Assembly: GCA_964533525.1 (NCBI GenBank)
Contig: CAZHJV010000001.1
Coordinates: 13,928-77,927 of the forward strand
DNA length: 64,000 bases
Direction of reading: 5' to 3'
From: an uncultured Methanomassiliicoccales archaeon
Lineage (GTDB): Archaea > Thermoplasmatota > Thermoplasmata > Methanomassiliicoccales > Methanomethylophilaceae
The translations under genes were made by a program, and so were the position numbers. Numbering within the stretch: the stretch's first letter is position 1; each line of letters opens with the position of its first letter. Positions 3,577-54,600 of this stretch are shown one piece after another. Under the pieces are notes generated by a model. The model ran no database searches and had not been told where the DNA came from. It saw only the letters and a list, made by a program, of their open reading frames with translations.

Positions 3577-4250
3577 AGCGACACCAGCACCCCGCCGCCG
3601 TACCTCCTGCAGGGGACCGAAGGGCCTCCGCGGAAAGGCATGACCCTGCGTATGGCATCACCCGACAGAAGATTGCCCCTGCATTCGGCCTCGCCGCAGT
3701 CATCGGGAGTCAGCAAAAGACTTTTCCCGTCCGCACTCACCCGGACGGAATAACGTCCGGTGCGGAATTCCGATGACATAAGGCCGTCGGGCGTATTCCT
3801 GACGGTCGGACACGTCTCCCTCTCGGACTGTTCATCGAGCTTTTCCGTCAGATCCTCTATCCTCCTCTCATAATCCTCCGCCGTCCTTTCGTAGACTTCC
3901 TTGGGGACAGCCTGCATCTCCGCAATCGCGGCGGCCACCTCGTCCCTGCATGTGTCCCAGAGGACCTCGGCAATCCCCTTCTTCTGATCCGTGCAGAGTT
4001 CCATGAAGAATGACGCGTCGATCTTCCTGATGGCCCTTGCGAAGTAATTCCCCATTCCGTAGGGATTCATCCTCAGGGAACAGAACCACATCTCTCCGGG
4101 GGAAATGACGTCTTCGCTCGCCCTGTCGCGGAGGACGACCGCTCCCTTGTGACGGCCGGAGACGTTTCCCTTCCGGTCGATGGCGAAGGAGACCGCGGCC
4201 ACCGTATCGAAATGTGCCAGATACGGATCCCGGGGCGGTTCGGACCTCAT
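3573..4250 (-). CDS. hypothetical protein; N-terminal TRAM-like barrel pattern, central coiled coil, C-terminal Cys-containing domain
   Basis: 225 aa. Its start overlaps the NYN gene stop by 4 nt (4247-4250). The N-terminus KGNVSGRHKGAVVLRDRASEDVISPGEMWFCSLRMNPYGMGNYFARAI resembles the TRAM pattern G.G..r..G.vv.v...pG....v.....nfAfA. Confidence 0.6.
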   Translation of the reverse strand: MRSEPPRDPYLAHFDTVAAVSFAIDRKGNVSGRHKGAVVLRDRASEDVISPGEMWFCSLRMNPYGMGNYFARAIRKIDASFFMELCTDQKKGIAEVLWDTCRDEVAAAIAEMQAVPKEVYERTAEDYERRIEDLTEKLDEQSERETCPTVRNTPDGLMSSEFRTGRYSVRVSADGKSLLLTPDDCGEAECRGNLLSGDAIRRVMPFRGGPSVPCRRYGGGVLVSL

Positions 4251-4810
4251 GCCTCCTCACCTGCCGGGTCCGCCTGCGTCCTGTGGGCAGGCATGATGAC
4301 GGGCAGGGAATCGAGCTCGCGGAACAGATCTCCCGCGCGGATCACGGACTGACTGACGGACGACCTGAAGGCCGCCACCTCCACCCTCTTCCCGGCGGAC
4401 TGTACATGTTCTATCGCAGGGATGAAGTCCCTGTCCCCGGAGACAATAAGGGCGGTGTCGAAGTGGTCCATGAGCGCATGGGTGACCATGTCGCAGGCCA
4501 GACATACGTCGACCTCCTTCTGGACGTTTCTGTTCGGATCGCACGATTCCCTCACGACAACTCTGAATCCCAAATACTCCAGTCTGTCGCGCAGCCGTTT
4601 CGAGGGATCCTCATACCCATAAGGCATCCTCGCGTCGTAAACATAGGCCGCCACGAGATTCCTGTTTCCGGCGAGTCCGTTCACCAGACCGCACAGGTCG
4701 ACGGTGGCGTTTCCGCCGTCGCCTACGGCATCGGAAGATCCGCTGAGCACATTGCGCAGGTCGATGAAAGCCATCAGCCTGTCTTTTCCGCATCCGGTAG
4801 TCAGAGACAT
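4247..4810 (-). CDS. NYN/LabA-like (PIN-like) nuclease domain protein
   Basis: FIDLRNV, DVCLACDMV and LIVSGDRDFIPAIEHVQSAGKRVEVAAF match the conserved Asp motifs of the NYN/DUF88 family. Confidence 0.8.
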   Translation of the reverse strand: MSLTTGCGKDRLMAFIDLRNVLSGSSDAVGDGGNATVDLCGLVNGLAGNRNLVAAYVYDARMPYGYEDPSKRLRDRLEYLGFRVVVRESCDPNRNVQKEVDVCLACDMVTHALMDHFDTALIVSGDRDFIPAIEHVQSAGKRVEVAAFRSSVSQSVIRAGDLFRELDSLPVIMPAHRTQADPAGEEA

Positions 4811-4861
4811 ACTCTGAAAGACCTACCGGATGCATATAAAGTGCAGATACTGCATGTAGTA

Positions 4862-6097: not shown

Positions 6098-6146
6098 GCG
6101 GCGGGCGAAACTACACTTCTATAAAAAGATTTGTATTGTACCCCTT

Positions 6147-6584
6147 TCAGAACGCACGGAGCAGTGCGTCCATGACGTCTGCCAGATGCTCCAGTGCATC
6201 GTCCGCGTCTTTCATCGCATTGACTCTTCCGGGCGTGCCTGCCTCCATCGCCTCGGATGCATTGTGCTTCTCGAGATATGCGTCGTATGCGGCTATGCCC
6301 TTTCCGAGTTCGTCGGCCACGAATGCGTCCCCTGCCTCCCTGCAGGATTCCGCGCTCTTCCTCATGTCGCCGAAAGTCTTGTTGCACATACGGACGGCGG
6401 CTTCCCTCGAAGGGGTGCCCTCCTCGGTATCCAGCGCCTTTGCGACCGTGTTGCATGCGAGTGTCACCATCGTCGCCGCGGTGATCCTCACCACAGTGAA
6501 ATCCTTGGACATGACATGCTCTTTCTTTCCGTCATTCTCTCCCGACATACTGTCTCCTCCTGCCGTCATTTCCGAACAAGTCAA
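6147..6584 (-). CDS. hypothetical alpha-helical protein
   Basis: The TTG start at 6584 overlaps the upstream IMPase stop (TTGA). Alternative ATG starts lie at 6569, 6548 and 6512. No motif recognised. Confidence 0.5.
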   Translation of the reverse strand: MTCSEMTAGGDSMSGENDGKKEHVMSKDFTVVRITAATMVTLACNTVAKALDTEEGTPSREAAVRMCNKTFGDMRKSAESCREAGDAFVADELGKGIAAYDAYLEKHNASEAMEAGTPGRVNAMKDADDALEHLADVMDALLRAF

Positions 6585-7390
6585 TAAGACTGCCGTCCGA
6601 GGTCTATCCCCGAAAGGACCTTCTCCCTGTAGGCTTCAGCCTCCTCCTCCGTACCCGCGAGCAGGAGGAACTTCGTCTTCTCCAGGATCTCTTCGTCCAC
6701 ATAGGCGCCCGCGACACGAGCCATGAACAGCCCCGGCATGAAGTCCCAGATCTTGTTCACGAAACGGATGTGTATGTCCGTCCTTCCCGATGCGATGTAT
6801 GCGAAATCGACGCAGGCGGCACCGAACATCCTGATACGCGCCACCTCGTCCTTCATGGCGCCGATGATCTCATAGTGCAGATCCCTCCACACCTGTTTCT
6901 TTCTGGAGAAATCCCCTGTCGACACGATGGCCTTCTTCAGGTCGGTGTTCCCGCGGGGATGCACAGGGACTCCGTTGAGTTTCACTCCTCCGGCCTCGGT
7001 CGCCGTGAACATCTCGCCGCGGACGGGCAGATATATGACGGACATGACGGGCTTCCGATCCACCATCAGGACGATCTGCGTCCCGAACATCGGGATGCCG
7101 TGTTCGAAGTTCAGAGTGCCGTCGATGGGATCGATAGCCCAAGTCCTGGCACATGTGAGGGAATTCTCCTGCCCCTCTTCCGCGATGAAGAGATCTCCCG
7201 GGAACTGCGCCGATATCGCATCGATTATGCTCTTCTGCGCGGCCTCGTCCGAGACGGTGACGAGGTCGTAGGAACCGACGGCGTTGGTCTTCTCTTCGGA
7301 CGGTCCCGCCTCGGAACCGACGTACATGTCGCCCGCGGCGCGGACCGCAGAGACCGCCGCCTCCAATTCACGGGAATACGGATCTTCCAT
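6581..7390 (-). CDS. inositol monophosphatase / fructose-1,6-bisphosphatase family protein (paralog 1)
   Basis: Metal-binding motifs IAEEG and WAIDPIDGTLNF, plus the C-terminal WDFMPG motif. 269 aa. Confidence 0.9.
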   Translation of the reverse strand: MEDPYSRELEAAVSAVRAAGDMYVGSEAGPSEEKTNAVGSYDLVTVSDEAAQKSIIDAISAQFPGDLFIAEEGQENSLTCARTWAIDPIDGTLNFEHGIPMFGTQIVLMVDRKPVMSVIYLPVRGEMFTATEAGGVKLNGVPVHPRGNTDLKKAIVSTGDFSRKKQVWRDLHYEIIGAMKDEVARIRMFGAACVDFAYIASGRTDIHIRFVNKIWDFMPGLFMARVAGAYVDEEILEKTKFLLLAGTEEEAEAYREKVLSGIDLGRQSY

Positions 7391-7423
7391 GACCCAGACA
7401 AGAAAAAACGGACATATACGTTT

Positions 7424-8092
7424 TCAGGCGAAGGGGATGATCCTGCGGAACACGGCGGTCGCACGGACCTCCGGAAACTCCTCCCCCGAGCCGTCCCCGG
7501 CGAAATACCAATGTCCGTACCCGATCCTCCTCAGAACGGATTCCAGGACCTCCGCGGACTGCGGAACGTCCGATCCGGACGCATACCGTTTCCATGATCT
7601 GGGACAGTCGCAGGTCAGCACAATATCCGCCTTCCCGCCGGCCTTCCGTACGTTGCCGCAGGCAGTATCCGCATCCTCCTGCGACGGATCCTGTTCCGGC
7701 CACCAATCCCAGTATCTGCCGGCGTCCGTACGGCCGGGAACGGTCTTCCCGCCCATCGTCAGCACCGTCTTCCCGCCGAGTCTGAAGACCTGCCCGCGGG
7801 TGAGATGGATCAGCCCTCTGGATACCGTGTGGACGGTGCCCCCGTTCCACGGGAACGGCGGATAATCGCCTATGAGGTCGTAATCGTCGCCGGGGCCGTC
7901 GAGGAAAAGAACGGAACAGGGAAGGGACCTGTATTCCTCCGCGATACGGCGCAGGTCGGCGCGGGGCGCGAACACCCCGCTGTCCCCGAGTATGACCAGA
8001 AAATCGTTCTTGGACATGGATGCGACGGCCGGATCGGACTCCAAACCCGAAAGACCCAGAGGTCCGGAGAACCCGGCCGCCGCCGCGAACAT
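7424..8092 (-). CDS. metallophosphoesterase-like protein, degenerate (lacks N-terminal DxH; GNHD-equivalent reads GPGDD)
   Basis: ILGDSG (GD motif), FLDGPGDDYD in place of GNH[DE], IVLTCDCP in place of the His motif, GYGHWYF (GH.H-like). An in-frame stop lies about 60 nt upstream of the ATG, so no longer N-terminus is possible. Confidence 0.55.
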   Translation of the reverse strand: MFAAAAGFSGPLGLSGLESDPAVASMSKNDFLVILGDSGVFAPRADLRRIAEEYRSLPCSVLFLDGPGDDYDLIGDYPPFPWNGGTVHTVSRGLIHLTRGQVFRLGGKTVLTMGGKTVPGRTDAGRYWDWWPEQDPSQEDADTACGNVRKAGGKADIVLTCDCPRSWKRYASGSDVPQSAEVLESVLRRIGYGHWYFAGDGSGEEFPEVRATAVFRRIIPFA

Positions 8093-9094: not shown

Positions 9095-10969
9095 TCATTC
9101 GGATTCCGGACCGTCCAGGACCTTCCATACGGTGAATATGTTCCTCCCGGCGAAGTACTTGTAATCCATGTAAGTGACCAGATTCCTGATCATGTGGATC
9201 CCGAAACCGCCGATGGGCCAGTTGCCGACATCCTCGTCGATCTCGATCTCGTCCCTGCTGATGGGGTTGAACGCATCCGCGCTGTCGGCGAACGTCAGTT
9301 TCATCTCATTCCCGCGGGCGCTGCAGTACACGGTGACCTCCCCGTCCGAATCTTCGTAGGCGTGATCGCAGATGTTGACGAATATCTCCTCCGCGACGAT
9401 CTCCATCTTGAGGATCTCCTTCTCGGGGAAACCGTGTCCCGTCAGGACCTCCTCTATGAATGCGTTGACCTTTCCGAGTTCCTCCGCCTTTCCGGGGACG
9501 GTGAAACTGCGGTAGTCCGGACGGCGGGCGATGAAACACAGCATCGTTATGTCATCGGACTGCGGCTGTTTCCCTGCGAACTCCCTCACGGCGCCGCGGA
9601 CGTTCCTCACGATGCCTTCCGCATCCGCACCCGCGGAAGCGTCGAGGGCTTCCTCGAGGCGTTCCCTCCCGAACTGCTCCCCCTCGGTGTTGAACGCCTC
9701 GTTCACCCCGTCGGTGTAGCAGAAGAACGTGTCCGTGTCGGATACCGAGACGGCATCGGTCTTGTAGCGGACGGCCTCGTTCACCCCGATCATCAGACCT
9801 TTCTTCACGGGGAGTTTTTCGAACTTCCCGTCGGAATGCCTGACATACGGCGGAGGGTGCCCGGCATTGGCGTACTGCAGGGTCCCGGTATCGGAATCGT
9901 ACACGCCCATCCATACGGTGACGAACTGCTCCGCGGCGTTTCTGGCACATACCTCCCTGTTCACCGCGGAGAGGATGCGTCCGGGGTCGTTGTGGAGCAT
10001 CGATACCGCCCTTATGGACCCCATGACCTCCATCATCATCAGCGAGGCGGGAAGCCCCTTGTCGGATACATCGGCCGTGACGAACGCGGTGAGGTTCCTC
10101 CCGATGGAGAAACAGTCGTAGAAATCGCCGGCCACCTCCGCGGCCGGCTCCATCATCCCGTAGATGTTCAGGGACCGGGTGGAGGGGAATTCGGCTGGAA
10201 GGGTCGCCTGCTGTATGTCCCTCGCAAGACCCAGATCGTGTTCCGTGCGCTTGGCGTTCTCCTGCGTCTCGATCAGAAGCGTGTACTTGTAATACAGGAC
10301 GACCGTGAGGTATCCGAACAGGAGGACGGCGGCACAGGACCATCCGTAGAGAGTATACGCATAGGGGTCGTCTGCGATCCCCGCATCATCGAGCAGCGAA
10401 GGGATGCAGACCGCATACACGGCGGCCACCGCCGCGGGAACGAGGTACCAGAGGAAACGGCTCTTCCTCAGGGCGCTCAGCAGGGCGGACAGCGCACCTC
10501 CGACGGACAGGAGGAGAAGATAGTACCACTGGAGATCGTAGTAATCCGGTATGACCAGGATGTGGACGGACATCGTTAACACGGTCACGGCGATGACAAA
10601 GAGAGGCCCGCTGCACATACCCGTCAGCATGAGCCCGACGAAACCGTACTGGAACAGCGTGCTGTCGTTGCTCCCCATAACGCCGTTCATGACCGACAGT
10701 CCCGTCATCAGCGCGATGAAGGCGGCCTTGTAATACCACTCCGAGAGCCCCGGCTCCGACAGCGCCCGGTACATGGGGCTGCGGAGAATGAGGTACATGA
10801 TCAGCACGGTGACGATGGTCCATGCGACCCCGCTGCTCATGTAGTACGAGATCGCATATGCGGGGTACTCCTGCATATCGAGATTGTATGTCACATACGC
10901 CGCTGCAGTGATCAGCAGCGTCGCGATGATGAAGCTATTCTGCAGGGCAGATGCCGCTTTTCCGTCCAT
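9095..10969 (-). CDS. membrane sensor / PP2C (SpoIIE-RsbU type) phosphatase / RsbW-SpoIIAB-like GHKL kinase domain fusion
   Basis: N-terminal ~240 aa has about 7-8 TM helices. PP2C motifs: AGDFYD, ADVSDKG, YTDGVNEA, SDDITM. C-terminus: VAEEIFVNICDHAY (N-box) and GGFGIHMIRN (G-box). The start codon overlaps the upstream stop by 1 nt at 10969. Confidence 0.85.
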   Translation of the reverse strand: MDGKAASALQNSFIIATLLITAAAYVTYNLDMQEYPAYAISYYMSSGVAWTIVTVLIMYLILRSPMYRALSEPGLSEWYYKAAFIALMTGLSVMNGVMGSNDSTLFQYGFVGLMLTGMCSGPLFVIAVTVLTMSVHILVIPDYYDLQWYYLLLLSVGGALSALLSALRKSRFLWYLVPAAVAAVYAVCIPSLLDDAGIADDPYAYTLYGWSCAAVLLFGYLTVVLYYKYTLLIETQENAKRTEHDLGLARDIQQATLPAEFPSTRSLNIYGMMEPAAEVAGDFYDCFSIGRNLTAFVTADVSDKGLPASLMMMEVMGSIRAVSMLHNDPGRILSAVNREVCARNAAEQFVTVWMGVYDSDTGTLQYANAGHPPPYVRHSDGKFEKLPVKKGLMIGVNEAVRYKTDAVSVSDTDTFFCYTDGVNEAFNTEGEQFGRERLEEALDASAGADAEGIVRNVRGAVREFAGKQPQSDDITMLCFIARRPDYRSFTVPGKAEELGKVNAFIEEVLTGHGFPEKEILKMEIVAEEIFVNICDHAYEDSDGEVTVYCSARGNEMKLTFADSADAFNPISRDEIEIDEDVGNWPIGGFGIHMIRNLVTYMDYKYFAGRNIFTVWKVLDGPESE

Positions 10970-12699
10970 CAGACCGTCACCGTCAGATTATTCAGTTTCA
11001 CCGAATAACTGTATTCTATGTTCTTCGCGGCCGCACGCACCACCCTGATGCCGAGATGCTTCCCGTCGTCGGCCGTTATCGGGTTGAATCTGACGCCGTC
11101 GTCCCTCATACGGAAGATCACGTCGTCCCCGTCCTTCGCGATGCGTATGTCGATGAAGTGTTCCTTCCCGTCCGTGAATGCGTATTCCACGACGTTTCCC
11201 GCCATCTCCTCGATACAGAGCGCGATGCGGTCCGCCTTGTCGCGGGAGACGCCGTGCTCCGCACACAGGTCCGAGATCCTCTCCGTGAGTCCGGAGACCG
11301 CCTCCATCCTGTTGGGGATGGACAGTTCGCAGACCGTATCCGCGGAGAAGGCGCCGGCGGGCGCGATGACGAAGTCCTCCGCATGATGCGGGAACTTTCC
11401 CGTCTTCACCCTGATGAACGCTATTATCGTGAGCACGGAGAGGATATCTGCGAGCACGAAGGACAGCCACACCCCGTCGAGACCCATGACCGGGGCGAGG
11501 GCGAAGGACACGAGGATGACGTACAGGGCGCCCCTCGAGAGGGAGATGATGTTCGACATCATCAGGTTCCCCATCGTCTGGTACATGTACAGGAAGATGA
11601 GGCAGACGGTGGATGTGGGCTGGGACAGTGCGAACAGCCTCAGGCATCTGACCGCCAGATCCAGGTCCCCGCCGTCGGCTATGAACATCCTCGCCACAGG
11701 TTCCGCGAATACTATCAGCATGACCGCGGCGGCAGAGGATACTGCTGTTCCGGATTTCAGCGTGACGCGTATCGTATCCGTGATGGCCCTCCTGTCCCTC
11801 TCCCCGAAGAAGATGCCGCACATGGTGGCGACCATGAGTCCGTACCCGGTGGAGATGGCTATCAGGAACTGATACACATTGGTCTGCACCGAAAGTGCCA
11901 GCACCGCGGTGGAGCCTCCGAGGGACAGCAGGAATGCGTTGAGCACGAGGTTCTTGATGGTCTGCGAACCTCTGTTTATCGCAGTGGGGAGACCTGCCAT
12001 GCAGATGTCCTTCAGCTCCTTCCCGCATCCGGAGGGGGAGCAGAACCTCATCATACGCTCCTTCCTCCTGAAATGGGTGAGGGCGACGGCGAGTCCGACG
12101 ACATTCCCGATCATCATGGAGAGTCCGATACCGAAAAGACCCAAATCCGTGGATGATGCACTGCAGACCGCGGCGGCGGTGTTCACGATGATGACGACGA
12201 CCATCGAGATCAGGGAGATCCTCTGGTTGCTGTCCATCCTCAGGTAGATCAGCAGATTCTGCAGGAGGAGGAACGGCACCGCCGAGATCCCGAGACCGCG
12301 GATGTAATCGGCCGCCATCCCCTCGATGCTGTCCTCCGCGCCGAACAGGTCCGACAGGGGATCGGCGAAGAGGAGACAGAACACCATGAAGACGGCGCCC
12401 ACGGCGGCGGATGCCAGGGTCGTCACGGTATAATTCAGCCGTACGGCCGCCATATCGCCCCTGCCGATGTGGTTCGCGCACCTTATGGAACCTCCGTTGC
12501 TGAAGATTCCGGCGGCCGCTCCCAGAAGGATGAACACAGGCGAAGCGAGACCGAACGCCACGAGGGCGTCCGAACCCAGCATCTGTCCGGTGATCAGACC
12601 GTTGATGACCATGCTCAGCGTGGCCGTGAGCGTCACCAGAATGGTGACGGCCAGATGGCTGTGCAGGACCTTTTCGATCAGATACGTGTTCGTATGCAT
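10969..12699 (-). CDS. MATE family efflux transporter fused to a C-terminal RsbW/SpoIIAB-like GHKL kinase domain
   Basis: About 450 aa with 12 TM and MATE character (ALVAFGLASPVFILL, GLGISAVPFLLLQNLLIYLRMD). Then about 125 soluble aa with IEEMAGNVVEYAF (N-box), RDDGVRFNP and LGIRVVRAAA (G-box-like). Confidence 0.85.
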   Translation of the reverse strand: MHTNTYLIEKVLHSHLAVTILVTLTATLSMVINGLITGQMLGSDALVAFGLASPVFILLGAAAGIFSNGGSIRCANHIGRGDMAAVRLNYTVTTLASAAVGAVFMVFCLLFADPLSDLFGAEDSIEGMAADYIRGLGISAVPFLLLQNLLIYLRMDSNQRISLISMVVVIIVNTAAAVCSASSTDLGLFGIGLSMMIGNVVGLAVALTHFRRKERMMRFCSPSGCGKELKDICMAGLPTAINRGSQTIKNLVLNAFLLSLGGSTAVLALSVQTNVYQFLIAISTGYGLMVATMCGIFFGERDRRAITDTIRVTLKSGTAVSSAAAVMLIVFAEPVARMFIADGGDLDLAVRCLRLFALSQPTSTVCLIFLYMYQTMGNLMMSNIISLSRGALYVILVSFALAPVMGLDGVWLSFVLADILSVLTIIAFIRVKTGKFPHHAEDFVIAPAGAFSADTVCELSIPNRMEAVSGLTERISDLCAEHGVSRDKADRIALCIEEMAGNVVEYAFTDGKEHFIDIRIAKDGDDVIFRMRDDGVRFNPITADDGKHLGIRVVRAAAKNIEYSYSVKLNNLTVTV

Positions 12700-12702
12700 C
12701 GT

Positions 12703-12999
12703 TCATTCCAGGGTGAGGATCTCGTCGAGACCCGTCTCGGTGAACACTTCCATGACGAGTTCGGGCACGTTCCTGATAACCATCTTCCCGCCGTTCTTGG
12801 CCATCTTCTTCTCGAGTGCCAGTATGACCCTGAGGCCCGCACTGGAGATGTAGATGCACGGCGAGAGGTCGATCTCGATGTACTTGGTGTCGTCCCCGAT
12901 CTGCCTGTTCATGTCGGCCTCGAAATCGGGAGAGGACGTCCTATCCAGTTTCCCCTCGATGACTGCTTTGATCTCTGTCCCGTTCTTTGCGATCTTCAT
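12703..12999 (-). CDS. STAS-domain anti-sigma-factor-antagonist-like protein (SpoIIAA/RsbV type)
   Basis: 98 aa standalone STAS. IEIDLSPCIYISSAGLRVILAL contains the conserved phosphorylatable Ser context (DxSG-like SSAGL). Confidence 0.85.
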   Translation of the reverse strand: MKIAKNGTEIKAVIEGKLDRTSSPDFEADMNRQIGDDTKYIEIDLSPCIYISSAGLRVILALEKKMAKNGGKMVIRNVPELVMEVFTETGLDEILTLE

Positions 13000-14696
13000 T
13001 CTTCTTCCTCCCTGTCGACAAGTATTCTGAAGAAACGGAGCTGGGCTTCGTTCATGATAATCTTAACCGGTTTTATCTGGGTGGACGCACCGCCCATCAT
13101 GATCTGTTTGTCCCTCCAGAGGGCGTAGGTCTCGTCCTGGAGATAGTGGGACACCACGGGCCCCGTGAGCCTCCTCTCGAACTTGTACTCGAGCATAGGG
13201 TTGGCCTTGATGAGCTCCTTCTGCAGGCACGCGGACAGTTCCTTCAGGTCCGCCTTCGGACGTCTGGGACATTCGATGAAGAACCTGTAGCAGGACGGTG
13301 TCATGTCGGTGTCCGGGTACACGCAGAAGTCGGCGTAATCGAAATCGAGGTCTTTCGCGGTGGCGTCCACCGCGGCCCTGAGAGCGGGCTCGTACGTCTT
13401 CTCCCCGTTGAGGTTGACGCACATGTCTATGCGGTAGAGGTATTCCATCGTCGGAAGGCTGTTGTACATCTTCACGAAGCGGACGGCGTCGCGGGTCCTG
13501 TAGCGGTACAGTCCCGACTGGGTCGTCAGTATCACCTCGTACTCCTTCCCGAGCTCCACCTCCGACACGGTGCATGTCTTCGACGGATCCTCCTCGCCGA
13601 GGGGGAGGAACTCCAGGAACATCGTATTACCCAGAGGTGCCGAATCCGATGTATCGAAATCGTACGGGGCGGAGATCGCACCTTCGGATGCCACGATCCC
13701 GGTCATGAACACCGGCACGTCTTCGGAGATGAAGTTCTCCCTGAGTTTGCGCAGATATGCGGAGAATGTCCCGGTGCTCACGCCCATGACGAACGTGAGA
13801 TTCGGCCATATCCTCTTGGCGATCGTGTTGCCGAAGCCCTCCGAGAATATTTTCCTGAGTTCCTCCGCCCTCTCCGGCATCGGGACCAGTTCCGACTCCA
13901 GCTTCGCACGGACGGTATCGGACATCTTGACGGAGGGGTCGATCTTCCCGGTCTCGATATCCCTGCAGAGCATCTCCCAGTTGCCCTGGATGTAATGGAA
14001 CATATCCAAAACGAACGTGATGAACGTGGTCTGGAGACTGGATACGTCCCTGTATGCGAGACCGTACCTGGCATGGAGGTACCTGCTGTCCGTCTCCTTC
14101 TCGGGACATACGGCCTCTTCGGGCGAGGTGAACATCTCCGGCTGCATCATCTGCCAGTCGTACACGCACTGGCCGGATACGCCGTAATATCTCTTGGGAG
14201 GGGTTCCGACGACGGCTCTGGCGGACGCCTCCGCGACGGAGAGCGCCTTCCCCTTCAGGAAATCGGTGCCGAAACGCTTCACCGCCATCCCGTAAGGCTC
14301 TGCGAAGGCGTAGTCGAGCAGATATCCCATGGATACCGAGGACATCGGTATCTTCTTGGGGTTGCCCATGGTCCCGGAGGATCTGTTGTACTGCGCCACC
14401 CCGTACACGGAATGGAGGTGCTCCTCCTTCCCCGTAAGTTCGCGGACCACATATTCGGCGTAATCGTCGTAAACGGTGAGCGGGACTTTCTTCTTGTAGT
14501 CCTCCACCGTCCTGATGCCGGAGAAACCGACCTTCCTGCCGTATTCCGTGTCTTTGTTGTCGTCCAGTATTCTGAATAGGAGTTCCTCGCTGATCCTCTC
14601 CGGATCCTTGGAAAAAGCCTCCAGATCGTCCATCGCCTTCCTGCCGCGGTTGGCGGCCGAAAGGTTCACCTGAACGGTTTTCCCCGTTTCTGCCAT
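12996..14696 (-). CDS. GH3 family acyl-acid amido synthetase (adenylate-forming)
   Basis: 566 aa. GH3 nucleotide motif RSSGTMGNPKKIPMS, LYRYRTRDAV, and the C-terminal ASTQIKPVK pattern typical of GH3/JAR1-like enzymes. The stop overlaps the STAS start by 4 nt. Confidence 0.85.
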   Translation of the reverse strand: MAETGKTVQVNLSAANRGRKAMDDLEAFSKDPERISEELLFRILDDNKDTEYGRKVGFSGIRTVEDYKKKVPLTVYDDYAEYVVRELTGKEEHLHSVYGVAQYNRSSGTMGNPKKIPMSSVSMGYLLDYAFAEPYGMAVKRFGTDFLKGKALSVAEASARAVVGTPPKRYYGVSGQCVYDWQMMQPEMFTSPEEAVCPEKETDSRYLHARYGLAYRDVSSLQTTFITFVLDMFHYIQGNWEMLCRDIETGKIDPSVKMSDTVRAKLESELVPMPERAEELRKIFSEGFGNTIAKRIWPNLTFVMGVSTGTFSAYLRKLRENFISEDVPVFMTGIVASEGAISAPYDFDTSDSAPLGNTMFLEFLPLGEEDPSKTCTVSEVELGKEYEVILTTQSGLYRYRTRDAVRFVKMYNSLPTMEYLYRIDMCVNLNGEKTYEPALRAAVDATAKDLDFDYADFCVYPDTDMTPSCYRFFIECPRRPKADLKELSACLQKELIKANPMLEYKFERRLTGPVVSHYLQDETYALWRDKQIMMGGASTQIKPVKIIMNEAQLRFFRILVDREEEE

Positions 14697-17677: not shown

Positions 17678-17751
17678 GACATCTGGCACATTGTAAGAAC
17701 GGACCGCGCACCCGGAATAAAGAGAGCGAACGGGGGCGCGGGGAAAATGTT

Positions 17752-26471: not shown

Positions 26472-26493
26472 AGTAGCTGTTAGTTCCGCTCTC

Positions 26494-26506
26494 TTAATAT
26501 AATTTT
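26494..26506 (-). promoter_or_regulatory. TATA-box candidate for glnN
   Basis: The minus strand reads AAAATTATATTAA, about 25-35 nt upstream of the ATG at 26471. This is consistent with a leaderless or near-leaderless transcript. Confidence 0.45.
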
Positions 26507-32392: not shown

Positions 32393-32709
32393 CATAAATT
32401 CGATGTATACATCACAGGAGGCGCAAAACCATAGGCAAAAAGAATACGTCGGAATTCCGCGGAGAGAAGTATATCGTTCTGAAGCTCACCGCCATGAGCG
32501 ACGCAGGGCCAGTTGGCGCGTCTGTGTGCGGAAGTTTCTAAGCGGTCAACTCAGGTCTCTCTGACGCGGCCAAACCCCTTAGCCTCTCAGGCATTTTTGC
32601 GACTGCATTGTATAATTCCCAGGTTCGGTTTTTGTGATTTCCGGGCAGCCGGCATCTGTCCGCAGAACCGCTTCAAATCCCCGAACCCGATGTGCCAGAC
32701 ATCATGAAA

Positions 32710-35258: not shown

Positions 35259-35398
35259 CCCGCATCCGGCATCCCGAATGACCCAGATGCGGAGAACCTC
35301 GCCCCGTCCTCTTTTTCCTAAGGGATACGGAGCTTCCGCCGGGGGGAATAGAACCTTTATAGAACAACCCTGTTGATACCCAATCAGAGTCGATCAAC

Positions 35399-42755: not shown

Positions 42756-43358
42756 TTATTTATAAAGCCTTTTAAGGGACCCGACGGTGAACGGTTTCCC
42801 GTGGCCCGGAATGACCACGTCGGCGTATCTCGCGATCCTCGCCATGGACGCCATCGCCTTCTCCGGGTCCGTATTGAGTGCTGGGACTGTCTTCTTGGCC
42901 AGATTGTCCTGCAGCGGGACCGCGTCCCCTGCGAACGCGTAGTTCCTGTCGGCGTCGACGAACACGGAACCGGAATCGTCGCTGTGACCGGGGGTACGGA
43001 CGAAACGCACGCCTCTGGCGATCTCCTTCTCGGTCTCCAGGACCGTGACCCCGTCCATGGGTTCCCCGCCGGAGAACTTGTAGACCTTCGCATTGCGGAA
43101 CATCCCGACGTTGCCGACATGGTCGGGGTGGGAATGGGTGAGCAGCACGATGTCCACATCCTCCGGGAAGATCTTCCCGATCTGCCTGAAGGACGTCTTT
43201 ATCCCGGCCCTCATGTACTCCTGGGACGTGTCGATGACGATGTTGTGCCCGTCGTCGGTCCTCACGAGCGAGGAGGTGGACCAGGTCCCGGAGGATACGA
43301 CCGCGCCGGATGCGTCCCTTTCGAGATGCCCGATGACCAGGATGTCTATGGATGTCAT
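42756..43358 (-). CDS. MBL-fold metallo-hydrolase
   Basis: LLTHSHPDHVGN (HxHxDH motif), TPGHSDDS and IPGHG. Start at MTSIDILVIGH; the longer track ORF to 43820 is antisense to the neighbouring gene. Confidence 0.85.
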   Translation of the reverse strand: MTSIDILVIGHLERDASGAVVSSGTWSTSSLVRTDDGHNIVIDTSQEYMRAGIKTSFRQIGKIFPEDVDIVLLTHSHPDHVGNVGMFRNAKVYKFSGGEPMDGVTVLETEKEIARGVRFVRTPGHSDDSGSVFVDADRNYAFAGDAVPLQDNLAKKTVPALNTDPEKAMASMARIARYADVVIPGHGKPFTVGSLKRLYK

Positions 43359-43403
43359 GGAATCAGGAATAAAATACCCCGATGAATATGTTGTCCCGGT
43401 ACA

Positions 43404-43979
43404 ATGGAATACAGGGACGGTCTCGATATAGCGGATGATCCGGACGTCTATCCCCCGTCGGAGGACAGCATACTGCTGGCGGAGTCCCTCGACATAAGGA
43501 AGGGCGAGAAGGTCCTGGAGATCGGACCCGGCTCCGGGATCGTATCCATACAGTGCGCCCTCAATGGGGCGGAGGTCGTCTGCGGGGACATCAACCCGAA
43601 GGCGGTGGCCCTCACGAGGAGGAATGCGGAGGCGAACGGCGTCTCCGTGAAGGCCGTGGAGAGCGACGTGTACTCCGCCATCGAAGGAAGGTTCGATACG
43701 ATCGTGTTCAACCTCCCGTACCTCCCGGTGGAGGACGAAGGCGAACTCGCGAAGGCATGGTCCGGCGGAAAGGACGGCCTCGGGCCGCTGCCGAGACTCC
43801 TGGAAGGAGCGCCGGAACATCTCCTCCCGGGCGGGAGGATTGTCGTGGTGGTGTCATCCCTCATGGACGGGGAACGCCTGAAAGAGGTCCTCGGAGACCG
43901 CCCCGTGAAGGTCCTCGGAGAACTCCCTCTGTTCTTCGAAAAGCTGCAGGTCTTGGAGATTCGGTTCCCGGGCATCTGA
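43404..43979 (+). CDS. HemK/Mtq2-like N5-glutamine methyltransferase
   Basis: VLEIGPGSGIVS (SAM motif I) and FNLPYLP (an NPPY-type substrate motif). 191 aa. Confidence 0.75.
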   Translation: MEYRDGLDIADDPDVYPPSEDSILLAESLDIRKGEKVLEIGPGSGIVSIQCALNGAEVVCGDINPKAVALTRRNAEANGVSVKAVESDVYSAIEGRFDTIVFNLPYLPVEDEGELAKAWSGGKDGLGPLPRLLEGAPEHLLPGGRIVVVVSSLMDGERLKEVLGDRPVKVLGELPLFFEKLQVLEIRFPGI

Positions 43980-44057
43980 TTTTTCATATCTGGCACATTG
44001 TTTTTCAAACAGAAATAAAGGGTGATGCGGACCCGTCCGCGAGGACGGGCGGACGCA

Positions 44058-45929: not shown

Positions 45930-47218
45930 AGCAGCTCCCTCCTGTCACTCATCTCGCCTGCGAGGGGAGTCTGCATGACGGCTTTGGCCGCTTCGGCGGA
46001 TTTGGTGTTGGCGAGGGCCCACATCAGCTTGACGTAGGCCGTCTCAGGAAGCATGTCCCAGACGGTCACGGCGCCGGCCGCGAGCATGTCCCTGCCGGTG
46101 TTGTAGACATTGAGGTTCGTCCTGCCGTTGAGGCACTGGGACGTCACCACGACGACAATCCCCGCGTCGGATGCCTCCTTTATGAGGGGGACCATGTTGC
46201 TGTTCACGTGTCCGAGACCGGAACCCGCGATCACCACCCCTTTGCTCTTCATCACGACGTCGCGGAAGAGGGCGGGGTCCATCCCGGGGTAGAACTGCAG
46301 GAGGATCACGTCGGTGCACATGGAGTTCATGAGCTCCGTCTTCCCTGCGGATACCTCCCTCCCGGGAGCATTGAACGTTATCTTCCCGGCGGCATCCACA
46401 TGCGCCACCGGAGGCACGTTGATGCTCCTGAAGGCGTCCCTGCGGGACGTGTGCATCTTCCTGACCCTGGTGCCGCAGTGCACCGCGAAGGAGTCGTCGC
46501 CGGGAGTGTCGTGCATGACCACGAAGACCCCTGCGCGGTTCCCGTCGGTGCAGAACCTGGCGGCCGCCATGAGATTGGAACTGGCGTCGGAGGACGGTCT
46601 GTCCGAGGACCTCTGGGCCCCGACGAACACCACGGGTTTCGGAACGTCTCCGAGCATGAACGACACCGCGGCGGCGGTGTATCCCATGGTATCCGTGCCG
46701 TGGGGCACGATGACCGCATCCGCGCCGGCGTTGAGCTCCTCCGCGATGGCCTCGGCCAGTTTCTGCCAGTGGGGCACCGTCATGTTCTCGGAGAAGATGG
46801 AGAACAGGACCTTCGCCTTCAGATTGGCGATCTCCCTGATCTCCGGGACGGCGTTGATCATGTCGGAGGTGGACAGGGCGGGGTGCACCGCGCCGGTCCT
46901 GTAGTCGACGTAGGACGCAATGGTACCGCCGGTGCCGATCAGGACAATGGTCTTCATACCGGGGACCGCATCCTCCGCGGTCTCGGTCTTCACCCTCTCG
47001 GCGGGCCTCGACACGACCTCTATCTTAGCATCCGCATCCATGCGGATACCGATGTTGTACCCGCTCTTCACCTTCAGGATGACGACGTCGCTGCCGCTGA
47101 ACTCGTGATGCGGCATGAGGACGCCTTTGTAAGTTTTACCGGAAGTCTCGACAGTAAGCATACAGCCCTCCTCGGCCCCTGCTTCCGCGAGCTTACCCGA
47201 CAGGAATTCGGCATACAT
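45926..47218 (-). CDS. gatD: Glu-tRNA(Gln) amidotransferase subunit D
   Basis: Asparaginase-like motifs GTGGTIAS and HGTDTMGYT. 430 aa. Confidence 0.95.
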   Translation of the reverse strand: MYAEFLSGKLAEAGAEEGCMLTVETSGKTYKGVLMPHHEFSGSDVVILKVKSGYNIGIRMDADAKIEVVSRPAERVKTETAEDAVPGMKTIVLIGTGGTIASYVDYRTGAVHPALSTSDMINAVPEIREIANLKAKVLFSIFSENMTVPHWQKLAEAIAEELNAGADAVIVPHGTDTMGYTAAAVSFMLGDVPKPVVFVGAQRSSDRPSSDASSNLMAAARFCTDGNRAGVFVVMHDTPGDDSFAVHCGTRVRKMHTSRRDAFRSINVPPVAHVDAAGKITFNAPGREVSAGKTELMNSMCTDVILLQFYPGMDPALFRDVVMKSKGVVIAGSGLGHVNSNMVPLIKEASDAGIVVVVTSQCLNGRTNLNVYNTGRDMLAAGAVTVWDMLPETAYVKLMWALANTKSAEAAKAVMQTPLAGEMSDRRELL

Positions 47219-49344: not shown

Positions 49345-50150
49345 GACGCGTAGCTGTCAAGATCGCCTATCTGGGTGACGGATTCAGCGGTTCCCAGATA
49401 CAGCCCCCGGAAACAGGCCTCCGCACCGTTGCGGGGGAGATACTGGATAAACTCCTCCTCGTGGACCACGTGCCCGAGGATAGGATAGACCTGCGTTTCT
49501 CCAGCCGCACCGATTCGGGCGTCAGCGCCCTCGGGAATGTGATTGCGTTCTACACCGAATTCAAGGATCTGGGTCTTCTTCTCCAGGCTCTCAACTCCGT
49601 ATCATACGGAGTCTATTACACCGCCGTCGCGGAGATACCCGACACATTCAATCCGAGAATGGCCGACAAACGCTACTACAGATACGTCACCCCGTCCAAG
49701 AACATAGATCTGGGTCTTTTCACGGAAGCGGCCAAGCTGTTCGAAGGGCACCATGATTTCAAGAGATTCGCCAAGAACGAGACGGGAAGATCCACCGTCA
49801 TGGCCATCGATTACGTGAAGGTGCATGAGGAGAACGGGGTCATATCAACCGACTTCTGCGCCAACTACTTCCTCTGGAACATGATACGCAGGATAATGGC
49901 CGCGGTCATACAGGTGGGGAACGGCATGTCCGACCTGGATGACGTCAAAGAGGCTCTGGCCGGAAAGGACACCACGTTCGGACTCGCCAAACCGTACGGC
50001 CTCACCCTGATGGACGTCACATTCCCGGATCTGGAATTCAAGAGGCCGGACACATGCCCGTACACCAAACGCATCGAACACGACCTGTACACCGATGCCG
50101 TGACGGCGGATTTCCACAGGGCCCTGAAATACCCGGAGCAACCGATATGA
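49341..50150 (+). CDS. truA: tRNA pseudouridine synthase A
   Basis: MRRVAVKIAYLGDGFSGSQ, catalytic SSRTDSGVSALGN. ATGA overlap with the purD stop. Confidence 0.9.
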   Translation: MRRVAVKIAYLGDGFSGSQIQPPETGLRTVAGEILDKLLLVDHVPEDRIDLRFSSRTDSGVSALGNVIAFYTEFKDLGLLLQALNSVSYGVYYTAVAEIPDTFNPRMADKRYYRYVTPSKNIDLGLFTEAAKLFEGHHDFKRFAKNETGRSTVMAIDYVKVHEENGVISTDFCANYFLWNMIRRIMAAVIQVGNGMSDLDDVKEALAGKDTTFGLAKPYGLTLMDVTFPDLEFKRPDTCPYTKRIEHDLYTDAVTADFHRALKYPEQPI

Positions 50151-50811: not shown

Positions 50812-51603
50812 TTAACGCCTAGCCTTCGGCTTGCCGTAGTTCTTCACGGGCTTCCTTACGACGTAGACCAGCGCGATAATGACGATCACGAAGATGATCG
50901 CCATTATGTAGTTCAGCCAGTCGTAGTTGCCGTCCTCGTAGTAGAACGAGGAGTCGCTCAGAACGATGCTGCCGTCGGAAGTCGCCACATGGAACGAGTG
51001 CTTGCCCTGAGACAGGTCGGAGTTGTAGTACTCGTAGGTTATGGTGGTGGACTCTCCGGGAGAGACCTTCAGAGCAGTGGAGCTGTCCTCCGCCTTCACT
51101 CCGTCCACGTAGAAGTAGACGTTCGTGTCAATGTCGACCTCTCCGTTGTTGGAGATGGTGGCGGAGAGCGTGATCGGGGTCACGACCCTGATGTCGACGG
51201 AGTCGGTGAATTTCTTCTCGTCCCCGTCATCGACGGTCTCCTCCCAGGTCACGGTGAGTGTGTACCTGCCGGTGTCGTCCGGTGCGGTCACGGTGAGGGT
51301 GACGATCGCACCGTCGTCCACATCCCCGGAAGAGGGGGTGACGGCATCGCTCTCGGTGCTCCCGGAGGAGTCGGTCAGCTTGGCGGTGTAGGAGACGGAG
51401 AGGGTGCTGTAGCCGGCGGTCTCCGTGAAGGTGATGTCGAACTTCAGCTCCGCTCCGGGCTTGGCGGAGGTCTCGTCTCCCTTTATCGAATAGTTGGCGG
51501 TCTGTTCCTCGTCGGAGTCTGCGGCGGAACCGTCCCCGCTGAGGAGGACGGCTCCGGCCGAGAAGACGACCAGTGCGGCCGCCAGGATTGTCCATACTTT
51601 CAT
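50812..51603 (-). CDS. secreted beta-rich protein with C-terminal TM anchor, coupled to the giant upstream gene
   Basis: MKVWTILAAALVVFSAGAVLLSG signal peptide. C-terminus IMAIIFVIVIIALVYVVRKPVKNYGKPKARR. ATGA overlap with the giant gene stop (51600-51603). Confidence 0.75.
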   Translation of the reverse strand: MKVWTILAAALVVFSAGAVLLSGDGSAADSDEEQTANYSIKGDETSAKPGAELKFDITFTETAGYSTLSVSYTAKLTDSSGSTESDAVTPSSGDVDDGAIVTLTVTAPDDTGRYTLTVTWEETVDDGDEKKFTDSVDIRVVTPITLSATISNNGEVDIDTNVYFYVDGVKAEDSSTALKVSPGESTTITYEYYNSDLSQGKHSFHVATSDGSIVLSDSSFYYEDGNYDWLNYIMAIIFVIVIIALVYVVRKPVKNYGKPKARR

Positions 51604-54600
51604 CTGCGTGCGAACACCCCCCTCTTGGATCCGGTCCAGATTATCAGGAGCAGGACCAGGACGGTCAGTACGAAGAGGACCCAGAAGGTCGTTCCGATCT
51701 TCTTGCCCTCGTCGGATGCGCCTCCGTCGGAGACGGAGCCGCTGTCGAGGGACAGATCGGCCTTCTGCGCCTTCAGGTCCGCTGCGGACACAGTCTTGCC
51801 CGAAACCGTCAGGCCGGCGGAATCGGTCGACAGGGCGGAATCGGCACCGTTCAGGTCCGTGACGGAGATGCTGAACTTCACATCGGGCACGGCGGTGCTC
51901 TGTCCGTCGGTGTTGATCACGGTGACGTACACCGTAGTGGTCGAGTATCCCTTCAGGAGGAAGGGCCCGTTCGACAGACCGCTGAATACCATGTATCCAT
52001 CGCTGTCCGTCCAGCAGACCGTCCAATCGTCGGAAGAACTGACGAATTCGGCGGTGACGCTCGCCATCTCCGCCCAGAGGTTGGAGTTGGCGAATGTCAC
52101 TGCATACTTGTAGGCGGAACCGGCCGCTATGTCGGCGCTTGCGCCGTCGGCGGAGGTGACATTCACCTTGGTTCCCAGATCGTCTCCGGACCTCTCGTAG
52201 CAGTCAGCGGGGACGATGATGTCCGCCACTTCGTTTCCGGCCGTGTCGGTGATGCAGACATACATGTCTTCGCTGCCCGCACCGACGGTGGCCGCATCGA
52301 AGTGTCCCTTGACGGTAACGGTTCCGTCGTATCCCGGAACGATCGACAGGGCATACGTCTGGTCGAGGACGAATGCGGAACTTCCCTTGATCAGGTAGGT
52401 CAGGTAGAAGTCGCTGTTGTTGGTGATGGTGAACGTCATCTCTCCGCTGCCGTCGGACTTGAACGATCCGGTGACATTGTCGTAATGGACATACACATCG
52501 TCTCCCCAGTCGTACTCGGCCGCAGAGGTGACGACGGAGAAGTTGCAGGTGACGTCCTTGTCCGCGACATTCACGGTCTTGTCGGCATCGGTGTCGAACG
52601 TGTAGATCTTGCCGTCGTTCTCATACACGAGTCCGTTGACTCTCATCGTGACGGTTCCGACGTTCTCGGGCACCTCGAACTCGTACTCCCCGTCGGTCAC
52701 ATCCTTGTAGAATGTGTAGGACTCGGAGTTGTAGGTGTACTCGACCTCCATCGTTCCGCTGATGTCCGCACCGACGGAACCCGAGACCTTCACGGTCTTG
52801 TAGAGAGTCGTCAGGTCGACGGATATGCTGGTGGGGGTGTCGGCGAAGACTATGGAGGACACTGCGACTGCTCCATCGGAGTTCTTTACATTGAAGGTGT
52901 AATCGAAGTTCTGCTCGAGATAGTACTTCACGGTGGCGACACCGGTGGTCTCGTCGACCGTTTTCTCACCCTTCACGTACTTGCCCGTATTTTCACTGGC
53001 GTCCTCGAAGGCGGTGATATTCAGGGTGTCCCCGTCGTTGTACTTGACCTCGGCGGTGAAACACACGAATCCGGACAGGTCGTCGAGGGTGATCGAGCTG
53101 TGTCCGAGGTAGAGGGTGAAGCTCTCCTCGGAGTGGTATCCGAGAGCGAGGAGGGCCTCGGTGTCCACATACCACTTTCCGGCATACATGTCGATCTGGC
53201 CCGCGTCGGCCCAGTCCGTGTACTCGTCGGACTCTTTGTACTTCACCTTGAGGGGATAGCCGGTGTTGTTCGTCACGTGCAGAGTCTTCGCGACCTGCAG
53301 TTTGTCGGTATCGTTCAGTCTGAACGTCCAGGTGTTGGAGGTGTTGGAGGTTACCTCGTCCTTGCTGTAGGTCTGATCCTCGGTGGCCTTCAGGATGCCT
53401 CCGTCGGAGGTGGAGTCGAACGCCTTGAGGGTGATGGTTATGCCGGAGTTCTCGGGGACCCAGAATACTGCGCGCCCGGAGGTGTTGGTCAGCACGGGGA
53501 CGGTGTAGGCCGCGTCGCCCACGGTGATCTTCCCTTCGACTCCGAAGTATGCGAGGTACTTCGAGGATCCGCTGCTGGCTGTGTAGGTGTTGACGTACTG
53601 TCCTACGGAGTAGGCCGTACCCATGGCGATGTCCGCCTTGTCCGTGTCGGCGGAGACGGTGATGTTCGCCAGGGAGACGAGGGAACTGCCGTTGTATGCG
53701 TACTGCACGAAGGTTGTGTCCTTGGGCAGATAGGCGGTGTACTTGCCGTCGCTGTCGGTCGTGTAGACGAACACGTTGGATCCGTCGACGAAGTTGACGG
53801 TCGCGCCGGAGACGGTGTCTCCGTCGGCGTTCTTCACGATTCCGGAAACGGTGCAGAAATCGGTTCCGACGAGGACGATGCCGCTCTCGTAGGTTCCGCT
53901 GCCGTAGTAGATCTTGCCGTTCTCGATGACGGAGGCGGTGTAGGTGTTGACCGCCCCTCCGGGTGCTGGCACATATGCCTTGTCAGCAGACTCCGCGACA
54001 CCGATGTATCCGATGGCGGAGATTGTGGGCACGGATCCGGTGGTGTTGGTGATGGCCAGTTCCTTCGCGTCGAAGAGGGTCAGACTGATGGTCTTGGAAC
54101 CGCCGGATGTCACGGAGACGGTGGAGGTGGAGCTGAACGAGTAGTTCTCGACAGCCTTCACGGCATAGGTTCCGACGGGGACGGAGATCTTCGCGGATCC
54201 CGCTTCGGCGGTACCCTCGAACTCCATTCCGGTGGAGACATTGTACACTGTCACCTGTCCGGTGTAGCTTCCTCCATAAGGTTCAGTGATGCTCACGGTG
54301 ACCGTTCCGGAAGGCACGGAGACGCGTGCGTTGACCATACTGTAGACAAAGGTCACGTCCGCAGTGGTGACGGAGGTTCCGTCCGCGGAGATGAGGTCGG
54401 CCGAATACACGTCGGGGACCATGCCAGCAACGCTGAACATTCCGCCGATGACATCGACCTGGTATGTCCTGCCGCAGGATTTCCCGGTGAATTTGATGTA
54501 ACCGTCGTAATTGTAGTCGGAACCGTCGCTCTCGATGACGGTGGAACCCGTGATATCCACGAGGTCGAGCTCCAGGGAGTAGTACCCGGATGCGGGGATG

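Follow-up and report, generated by a model that had tools for sequence, protein, structure and literature searches.

The closest described counterparts of the element reported here are the DNA uptake sequence (DUS) of the Neisseriaceae (AT-GCCGTCTGAA and its dialects) and the uptake signal sequence (USS) of the Pasteurellaceae. Both are short, non-palindromic words of 10 to 12 bp that are hugely over-represented. They lie on both strands and, within genes, in several frames, and they are enriched in permissive or intergenic DNA (PMC3630211). They are common to related species, combine a strict core with tolerated variant positions, and are conserved relative to their flanks yet turn over (PMC3630211), a state that is upheld by drive, in which preferential uptake is followed by recombination. 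Here, we describe a word with most of these sequence-statistical features in a 64,000-nucleotide stretch of DNA (the window) from an uncultured methanogenic gut archaeon of the family Methanomethylophilaceae, order Methanomassiliicoccales (contig CAZHJV010000001.1, positions 13,928 to 77,927). It occurs as the 10-mer TCTGGCACAT (m1) and as TCTGGGTCTT (m2), which have the half-word TCTGG in common. Both belong to a family of 11 to 12 bp, A-TCTGG-(CA/GT/GA)-C-(A/T)-T.

Other chromosome-wide words also bear comparison. Chi, the signal for RecBCD and AddAB, resembles the present word as a lineage-specific word found through genes every few kilobases, a genome-wide “self” signal. It is 5 to 8 nt long, modestly (few-fold) over-represented, read on one strand and co-oriented with replication. 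HIP1 (GCGATCGC) of cyanobacteria is likewise a very abundant short word of one lineage, present in genes and spacers and possibly driven; it is a perfect palindrome of 8 bp and is linked to a methyltransferase site. The sites parS (read by ParB), the Noc-binding site NBS, the SlmA-binding site SBS and matS (read by MatP) are similar in being high in information, also genic, conserved and independent of transcription direction. They are palindromes restricted to certain regions, with tens of copies per genome. Architecture-imparting polar motifs such as KOPS and SRS, the guides of FtsK and SpoIIIE, are short, chromosome-wide and read by a DNA-binding domain, as the present word may be, but they are strongly skewed to one strand per replichore, whereas here both orientations occur within 1 to 10 kb. 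Repetitive extragenic palindromes (REP), their mosaic elements (BIME) and repeats of the kind of miniature inverted-repeat transposable elements (MITE) share a high copy number and an enrichment in spacers, including those between convergent genes. However, they are at least 20 to 35 bp long, have a palindromic form or inverted repeats at their ends, and occur only in spacers, while here conservation does not extend past 12 bp and two of every three sites are genic.

Over-representation of the word in the window

Exact searches found 10 copies of m1 in the window, 7 on the plus strand and 3 on the minus strand. Dinucleotide-preserving shuffles gave an expectation of 0.09, and none of 100 shuffles held more than one copy. 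Markov models of order 1 to 5 predicted 0.07 to 0.56 copies, or 0.06 to 0.16 when the motif copies were masked before estimation. The strong over-representation claimed in a preliminary description of this DNA survives all of these models. For m2, we counted 6 copies against 0.11 expected, and the family as a whole (TCTGGSWCWT) had 23 sites against 0.95 expected, split 12 plus to 11 minus. Family sites thus occur about once per 3 kb, and m1 once per 6.4 kb. An excess of about 20- to 100-fold for words of about 18 bits inside genes is, to our knowledge, found only for uptake sequences, short mobile repeats and HIP1.

The preliminary description had listed nine copies of m1 (plus strand, 9941, 17682, 26775, 28832, 31946, 38421 and 43989; minus strand, 4212 and 32690). 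All nine reproduce by exact search, but the list was incomplete, as it missed the copy at 59143 (minus). The 9-mer copies at 7146 and 53966 (plus) and 40025 (minus) were recovered as well, as were two longer identities, the 14-mers ATCTGGCACATTGT at 17681 and 43988 and TCTGGCACATTCGA at 31946 and 38421. Variants had been grouped as TCTGGNACAT, a class with 17 window matches against 0.41 expected. Its six one-base variants (13263, 36492, 46053, 32255, 49873 and 55142) are present, although one at 11577 (plus) had been overlooked. The class itself was partly right: the true degeneracy is TCTGG(CA/GT/GA)C(A/T)T, which includes the unlisted m2. A threefold excess of plus-strand copies had also been proposed. 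It stands at 7:3 for the exact word and is gone (12:11) for the whole family, which makes it a small-sample effect.

Two other frequent words in the window have a different origin. The 10-mer GGCCTTCTTG(AC) has 8 copies in the window, and GGCCTTCTTG always encodes K-K-A on the coding strand. Because the six copies that were inspected (18812, 22236, 22476, 24970, 30031 and 36423) are all antisense to an annotated gene, we attribute this excess to a frequent K-K-A peptide with preferred codons and not to a DNA signal. The word is a useful negative control for the motif family. A strand-biased word, CGAATGCG(T), stems mainly from the internal repeats of a BspA-like leucine-rich-repeat (LRR) gene. 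Pooled k-mer enrichment across loci was dominated by orthologous conservation and gave no information on the word.

Tolerated substitutions in the word

We counted the suffixes that follow TCTGG in 178 kb of approximately non-redundant DNA from the window's clade. The most frequent were GTCTT (19), CACAT (16), CACTT (7) and GTCAT (7); GACAT (6), GACTT (2), CTCAT (1) and CTCTT (0) were rarer, for a total of 58. Control prefixes with the same suffixes gave counts of 1 to 16. The hybrid words ending in CACTT and GTCAT were enriched, and control prefixes were not. In position-by-position counts over 248 kb, CTGG (positions 2 to 5), position 7 and C8 were near-invariant, and positions 6 and 7 together were CA, GT or GA. 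At position 9, the A-to-T and T-to-A transversion was common (11 and 8 copies), with 0 to 2 transitions. Mutational decay as the source of the variants would favor transitions, yet position 9 shows transversions, and we rejected it.

Compared with m1, m2 carries complementary bases at positions 6, 7 and 9 only. With its preceding A, m1 becomes ATCTGGCACAT, a near-palindrome (AT.TG.CA.AT) with four of five symmetric pairs; m2 is not palindromic. The degeneracy looks like a protein recognition code in which three positions are read only as G:C-type or A:T-type pairs. We infer a reader protein that would be strict at TCTGG, C8 and T10 and would distinguish only the type of base pair at positions 6, 7 and 9.

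Placement in genes and spacers

The DnaK relatives of the window all belong to the Methanomethylophilaceae or to other Methanomassiliicoccales archaea. Loci from relatives are given L numbers below, and gene calls in them are heuristic. Among public contigs, CAVIJO010000002.1 (L001) comes closest, with 93.5% DNA identity over 22 kb, and we therefore regard it as a sister species and not the same genome. Contigs that encode a methyltransferase identical to the window's are present in ENA and Logan assemblies. Of the proteins at the two ends of the window, one had no public record, and the other lengthened the sequence by only about 8 kb. The 23 family sites in the window are as follows.

2395 to 2404, minus: m2, antisense inside methyltransferase gene 1831-2457 (plus)
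4212 to 4221, minus: m1 exact, sense, 29 nt into a 225-aa hypothetical gene and 25 nt past the stop of an NYN-domain gene
6741 to 6750, minus: family site TCTGGGACTT, sense, inositol-monophosphatase gene 6581-7390 (minus)
7389 to 7398, minus: family site TCTGGGTCAT, overlaps the start codon of gene 6581-7390 (minus), at the gene/spacer boundary
8051 to 8060, minus: m2, sense, 222-aa hypothetical gene; kept in L001
9941 to 9950, plus: m1, antisense, SpoIIE-phosphatase/HATPase gene 9095-10969 (minus); kept in L001
10226 to 10235, minus: m2, sense, gene 9095-10969 (minus); kept in L001 and L004 (region 76% identical)
13263 to 13272, plus: family site TCTGGGACAT, antisense, GH3-family gene
17682 to 17691, plus: m1, convergent spacer between a YbjN-like gene and dnaJ, 4 nt after the YbjN-like stop
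26775 to 26784, plus: m1, upstream of the glutamine synthetase III gene, in a divergent spacer of 600 nt
28832 to 28841, plus: m1, sense, 750-aa hypothetical gene (F-W-H-I); kept in L006, one base off in L001 (TTTGGCACAT)
31946 to 31955, plus: m1, sense, inositol-monophosphatase gene 31458-32321 (L-A-H)
32690 to 32699, minus: m1, spacer, 10 nt after the stop of HPP gene 32710-33219 (minus)
35278 to 35287, minus: family site TCTGGGTCAT, spacer between PurM-like and DUF1015 genes
36492 to 36501, plus: family site TCTGGGACAT, sense, DUF1015 gene; the orthologous position in L089 is TCTGGGACTT
38421 to 38430, plus: m1, sense, NFACT gene (L-A-H); one base off in L086 (CACAG) and L089 (CACAA)
40332 to 40341, plus: m2, sense, HAD-hydrolase gene; relatives one base off
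43989 to 43998, plus: m1, convergent spacer, 9 nt beyond the MTS methyltransferase stop and 59 nt beyond that of gatE
46053 to 46062, minus: family site TCTGGGACAT, sense, gatD; kept in L086
49568 to 49577, plus: m2, sense, truA-like gene; kept in L085, L086, L089, L090 and L091 (74 to 85% regional identity)
49709 to 49718, plus: m2, sense, truA-like gene; the orthologous position in L085 and L086 is the m1-like TCTGGCACGT
57794 to 57803, minus: family site TCTGGCACTT, divergent spacer between a 1937-aa surface-protein gene and a radical-SAM gene
59143 to 59152, minus: m1, antisense, radical-SAM gene 57867-59306 (plus)

As had been proposed, protein coding does not explain these sites: they use three frames and both orientations, and copies also lie in spacers. 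The intragenic m1 copies of the window encode L-A-H three times and W-H-I once in the sense orientation, and the antisense copies face C-A-R and V-P-D. Over all loci, with orthologous duplicates removed, 66 family sites comprised 23 sense, 22 antisense and 21 intergenic sites, and all reading frames were used. Thus, 68% are intragenic, and the 32% in spacers compare with about 10% of the DNA in these loci, a 3-fold enrichment (p=6e-7). Several intergenic sites lie between convergent genes; an enrichment in convergent spacers beyond the general intergenic enrichment was not significant. A sense-strand bias, 12:4 in the window, disappeared over all loci (23:22). Similarly, a bias toward gene ends suggested by 16 intragenic window sites was not borne out, with position in the gene uniform over 45 de-duplicated intragenic sites.

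The word stands alone. At 24 independent m1 sites and 20 independent m2 sites, flanking base counts were flat beyond positions -1 and +11, except for an A at -1 and a T or C after the word. No partner half-site or second copy was found within 60 nt on either side of 69 sites. From the flat flanks and the lack of such partners, we conclude that the unit is a stand-alone word of 11 to 12 bp, and the same observations rule out a hidden longer repeat or MITE. Two promoter- or origin-type explanations were also rejected. A sigma-54 promoter (-24 TGGCAC, -12 TTGC) was not supported, with TTGC at the required spacing of 5 nt in none of 10 contexts and an archaeon as host. Archaeal origin recognition boxes (ORB) have an unrelated consensus, which in Methanomassiliicoccales is GTTCCAGTGGAAATGG-AGGGGTA (PMC4153887), and the sites here are dispersed. 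The word lacks the defining features of REP and MITE repeats, sigma-54 promoters, ORBs and KOPS-like motifs.

Orientation is mixed over short distances. In the window, opposite orientations lie 285 to 750 bp apart (9941 plus and 10226 minus; 31946 plus and 32690 minus), and the sites of L073 run minus, minus, plus, plus within 10 kb. A strongly polar motif is excluded, since the two orientations are found only a few hundred bases apart. Mixed orientation within single loci of 10 to 20 kb likewise argues against the suggested resemblance to architecture-imparting polar motifs. For the exact words m1 and m2, every site to the left of about 9 kb in the window is minus, and 10 of the 13 to the right are plus; the GC-skew profile of the window shows no clear origin or terminus. 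Spacing in the window was not significantly regular (coefficient of variation of the gaps, 0.85 versus 0.94 for random placement).

Two long genes of the window, those for the BspA-like LRR protein and a 1937-aa surface protein, contain no family site against 2.9 expected (P about 0.04).

Conservation, turnover and interchange of sites

We compared the sites between seven close species pairs, some of which share a member and are thus not fully independent. Motif positions carried 13 substitutions in 230, compared with 202 in 1380 for the 30-nt flanks on either side (Fisher p=4.6e-5), so that family sites evolve about 2.6 times more slowly than their surroundings. At 26775, in a spacer that evolves fast, L001 retains the whole 12-mer CATCTGGCACAT but has different adjoining bases. 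Sites nevertheless turn over. Six of eight are common to both genomes at 93.5% identity and about three of eight at roughly 80%, and sites missing from the other species are often one base off there. Density is kept rather than position.

At some spots, one form of the word takes the place of another. Downstream (3') of gatE, the spacer has m1 in the window, L089 and L091 but m2, oppositely oriented, in L085, L086 and L120; the site is present across these loci although the flanks are unalignable. Likewise, the spacer 3' of dnaJ carries the CACAT form in the window versus the CACTT form (TCTGGCACTT), in the other orientation, at the same spot in L002. Within the truA-like gene, m2 at 49709 corresponds to TCTGGCACGT in L085 and L086. 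This replacement of m1 and m2 by each other, together with the orientation flips, points to one orientation-blind reader.

The 600-nt spacer around the copy at 26775 (26472-27084), upstream of the glutamine synthetase III gene, has a very A+T-rich proximal half with several TATA-like stretches and a G+C-rich distal half that contains the one motif copy. It evolves much faster than the neighboring genes and is 88% identical to L001 over the aligned stretch.

Distribution among relatives

Family density was placed on a DnaK tree of 80 loci, with the following result.

Window's clade A (Methanomethylophilus-like, G+C 53 to 65%): 3.8 sites per 10 kb
Distant clade B (L069, L072, L073 and L075; G+C 43 to 48%): 3.2 sites per 10 kb
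L053: 2.3 sites per 10 kb
Remaining clades, including a 462-kb block of 33 species: 0.2 to 0.3 sites per 10 kb

The family is therefore 10 to 17 times denser in three archaeal clades than in their sister clades. Between clade A and the 33-species block (clade C), the contrast in density is 17.6-fold (p=8e-26). An independent set of gatE loci from metagenomes gave 2.0 sites per 10 kb in close relatives versus 0.7 in other gatE loci. We found no alternative over-represented word, or “dialect,” in the motif-poor clades, where the top 10-mers repeated within loci were coding words. Because sister lineages carry the word at background level, its function would be dispensable.

Interpretation of the word

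Taken together, we consider it highly probable that this is a selected, lineage-specific word for protein recognition that acts at the level of DNA, and not an effect of coding, of a repeat or of chance. The preliminary description had known of no such word described for this lineage. String and keyword searches of the literature agree, with matches only to primers and unrelated papers. Most likely, the motif is a double-strand recognition site for one sequence-specific DNA-binding factor.

As for its role, we favor a self-DNA tag that would work like DUS and USS, and we put the probability of this reading at about 35%. Machinery for DNA import or exchange would prefer fragments carrying the word, and homologous recombination of the imported fragments would spread and restore it wherever the sequence tolerates it. 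The outcome would be a high, even density without a local function at each site. We rank this reading first because the combination of features matches that of bacterial uptake sequences (PMC3630211): a very large excess for a word of about 18 bits, genic copies regardless of frame, a surplus of sites in permissive DNA, a strict core that tolerates variants, conservation with turnover, and dispensability in sister clades. We do not file the word as a DUS or USS, as it would only work like one, by analogy.

Several points weigh against such a tag. Density here is 3 to 6 times lower than in Neisseria and Haemophilus (PMC3630211). Two quite different words coexist and interchange in one genome, whereas Neisseriaceae genomes are dominated by one dialect. 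The inverted-pair, terminator-like arrangements that are typical of DUS and USS are absent within 60 nt of the 69 sites, and the word is patchy among clades, identical in each, with no clade-specific dialects. The host differs, too, being an archaeon without a known competence system or receptor. We know of no natural transformation in Methanomassiliicoccales. Competence is unreported for the order in the literature searched, and the order's comparative-genomics paper is silent on competence and pili. We identified no uptake or exchange machinery or receptor, and Pfam and NCBIfam scans of the unannotated window proteins gave no candidate reader. That a site is repeatedly kept in the same two 3' spacers could mean a position-specific function. 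Finally, the DNA sampled amounts to 64 kb of the subject genome and about 1.7 Mb of relatives' loci.

The main rival, to which we give somewhat less credence than to a self-DNA tag, holds that the sites serve an abundant, sequence-specific chromosome-architecture protein and that each is kept by ordinary selection for its location. Candidates would be a nucleoid-associated, SMC-loading, segregation or occlusion-type factor, or a preferred topoisomerase site. The sites kept 3' of gatE and 3' of dnaJ across species, despite divergence and changes of word and orientation, are as this view would have them. So are the slower evolution of sites than flanks, the orientation-blind recognition with a nearly palindromic m1, and the several intergenic sites between convergent genes. 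However, site-by-site selection on several hundred sites of about 18 bits, many of them genic, would be hard; that number, an extrapolation, and the high turnover between species also set the word apart from parS-type sites. The background level in sister lineages and the lack of a significant convergent-spacer excess count against an architecture protein as well. Less probable, and in our view unlikely, is a Chi-like signal, which would modulate the machinery of DNA end processing or degradation and mark chromosomal DNA as self in repair, recombination or defense. Such a signal would suit a lineage-specific word inside genes at about one per 3 to 6 kb, a frequency similar to that of Chi in E. 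coli, and the orientation split of m1 and m2 around 9 kb of the window would fit a modest replication-linked bias. But a word of about 11 nt with a 20- to 100-fold excess is unlike the short, few-fold Chi, and it shows no local polarity, with 12 plus and 11 minus sites in the window and mixed orientations within 10-kb loci. Its duplex-type degeneracy, with complementary swaps at positions 6, 7 and 9, and its orientation flips fit duplex recognition better. Moreover, the window encodes no RecBCD- or AddAB-type enzyme, and we know of none in the host.

Three further explanations have a lower standing. The word might be a functionless by-product of biased repair or modification, for example of methyltransferase-linked repair of the very-short-patch type that would turn near-matches into the word; such conversion has been proposed for HIP1 palindromes. 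We rate this slightly below a Chi-like role. A gain-and-loss-prone enzyme would fit the strong excess, the enriched one-off variants and the clade-specific presence and absence, and its drive would also keep sites conserved, but the word is asymmetric and, at 10 to 12 bp, much longer than known repair specificities. Its degeneracy at three positions also differs from HIP1, and two alternative words with S/W degeneracy would be hard for one directed correction to produce. An RNA-level or transcription-linked element, whether a 3'-end or termination signal or an mRNA binding site, is very improbable. It had been suggested by three intergenic copies just after stops, which are indeed there, at 4 nt (YbjN-like), 9 nt (MTS-type methyltransferase, 43404-43979) and 10 nt (HPP), and 4 of the 10 window m1 copies lie 4 to 25 nt downstream of a stop in sense orientation (p about 1e-3). 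At two spacers, a GC-rich hairpin and a T-rich stretch precede the word. The after-stop pattern fell to 1 of 22 in relatives, however (p=0.62), and the word is therefore no general 3'-end element. Sense and antisense copies are equally frequent, two thirds of the sites are genic with uniform position, and the gatE spacer holds the word in either orientation. Four RNA runs mapped to a relative's locus gave zero reads. To chance, codon or amino-acid usage, a hidden repeat family or an assembly artifact, we attach next to no weight. Words of that kind do exist in the window, as GGCCTTCTTG (K-K-A) and CGAATGCG (LRR repeats) illustrate, but the shuffles and Markov models stay far below the observed counts, all frames and both orientations are used, the flanks are dissimilar between sites, and the word recurs in other species, whose assemblies are independent, and in a separate genomic region.

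In its boldest and still tentative form, the self-DNA tag would be the first sequence-specific one in Archaea. A gut and rumen subset of the Methanomethylophilaceae would bias DNA import or cell-to-cell exchange toward its own kind, or protect self DNA, via A-TCTGG-SW-C-W-T, and the reader protein would be gained and lost with the word by clade. We found no report of an uptake- or Chi-type word from archaea in the literature searched. In bacteria, it was through the signature words DUS, USS and Chi that major machineries for taking up and recombining DNA came to light. In archaea, the exchange of DNA and the processing of double-strand breaks are poorly understood, and the word offers a concrete handle, a defined site of 11 to 12 bp whose tolerated substitutions follow a clear code. 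Sister clades that are rich in the motif and others that are free of it form a natural comparison for locating the reader gene by phylogenetic profiling, and culturable relatives would be open to experiment if Methanomethylophilus alvus is motif-rich. The word is also a practical marker for assigning or checking metagenomic contigs of these host-associated methanogens, several of which are in bins labeled as bacteria.

Other features of the window

The housekeeping genes of the window are archaeal and include dnaK-dnaJ-grpE, thermosome, glutamine synthetase III, gatDE, purD, purM-like, thyX, NFACT, rpoA'/A'', L30e and NusA-KH genes. Adhesin-like surface proteins are also encoded. Two of the long proteins are a 769-aa BspA-type LRR protein (14755-17064, minus) and the 1937-aa surface protein (51600-57413, minus), whose sole Pfam match is a CarboxypepD_reg domain.

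Three genes in a row at 9095-12999 (minus) form a bacterial-type partner-switching module. One protein joins a SpoIIE/PP2C phosphatase to a kinase-like HATPase_c_2 domain, another carries HATPase_c_2 on a MatE transporter, which is an unusual fusion, and a further one has a STAS domain. Beside it, 12996-14696 (minus) encodes a protein of the GH3 family (acyl-acid amido synthetase-like) that is full-length and has all three of the GH3 domains, in an archaeal host.

At 42756-43820 (minus), a 354-aa open reading frame has a metallo-beta-lactamase match that is confined to its C-terminal half, and it overlaps the real MTS-type methyltransferase gene (43404-43979, plus). Its N-terminal part is probably untranslated and would lead naive gene calling astray.

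Directly downstream of the gatE and dnaJ stops (44000-44057 and 17700-17751), a GC-rich hairpin is followed by a T-rich stretch. After the gatE stop, this arrangement is found in most Methanomethylophilaceae loci (L085-L111), with differing sequences. It looks like a bacterial-type intrinsic terminator in an archaeon.

Ten species-representative public genomes that are titled as bacteria contain contigs with a Methanomethylophilaceae dnaK region (L003, L005, L012, L016, L017, L020, L027, L029, L041 and L052). Their titles name Eggerthellaceae, Acutalibacteraceae, Ruminococcus, Dialister hominis, Firmicutes, Lachnospiraceae, Bacteroidaceae, Anaerovoracaceae and Bacteroides salyersiae. The DnaK proteins of these loci are 81 to 87% identical to that of the window, and the loci look like mis-binned or mislabeled contigs of metagenome-assembled genomes.

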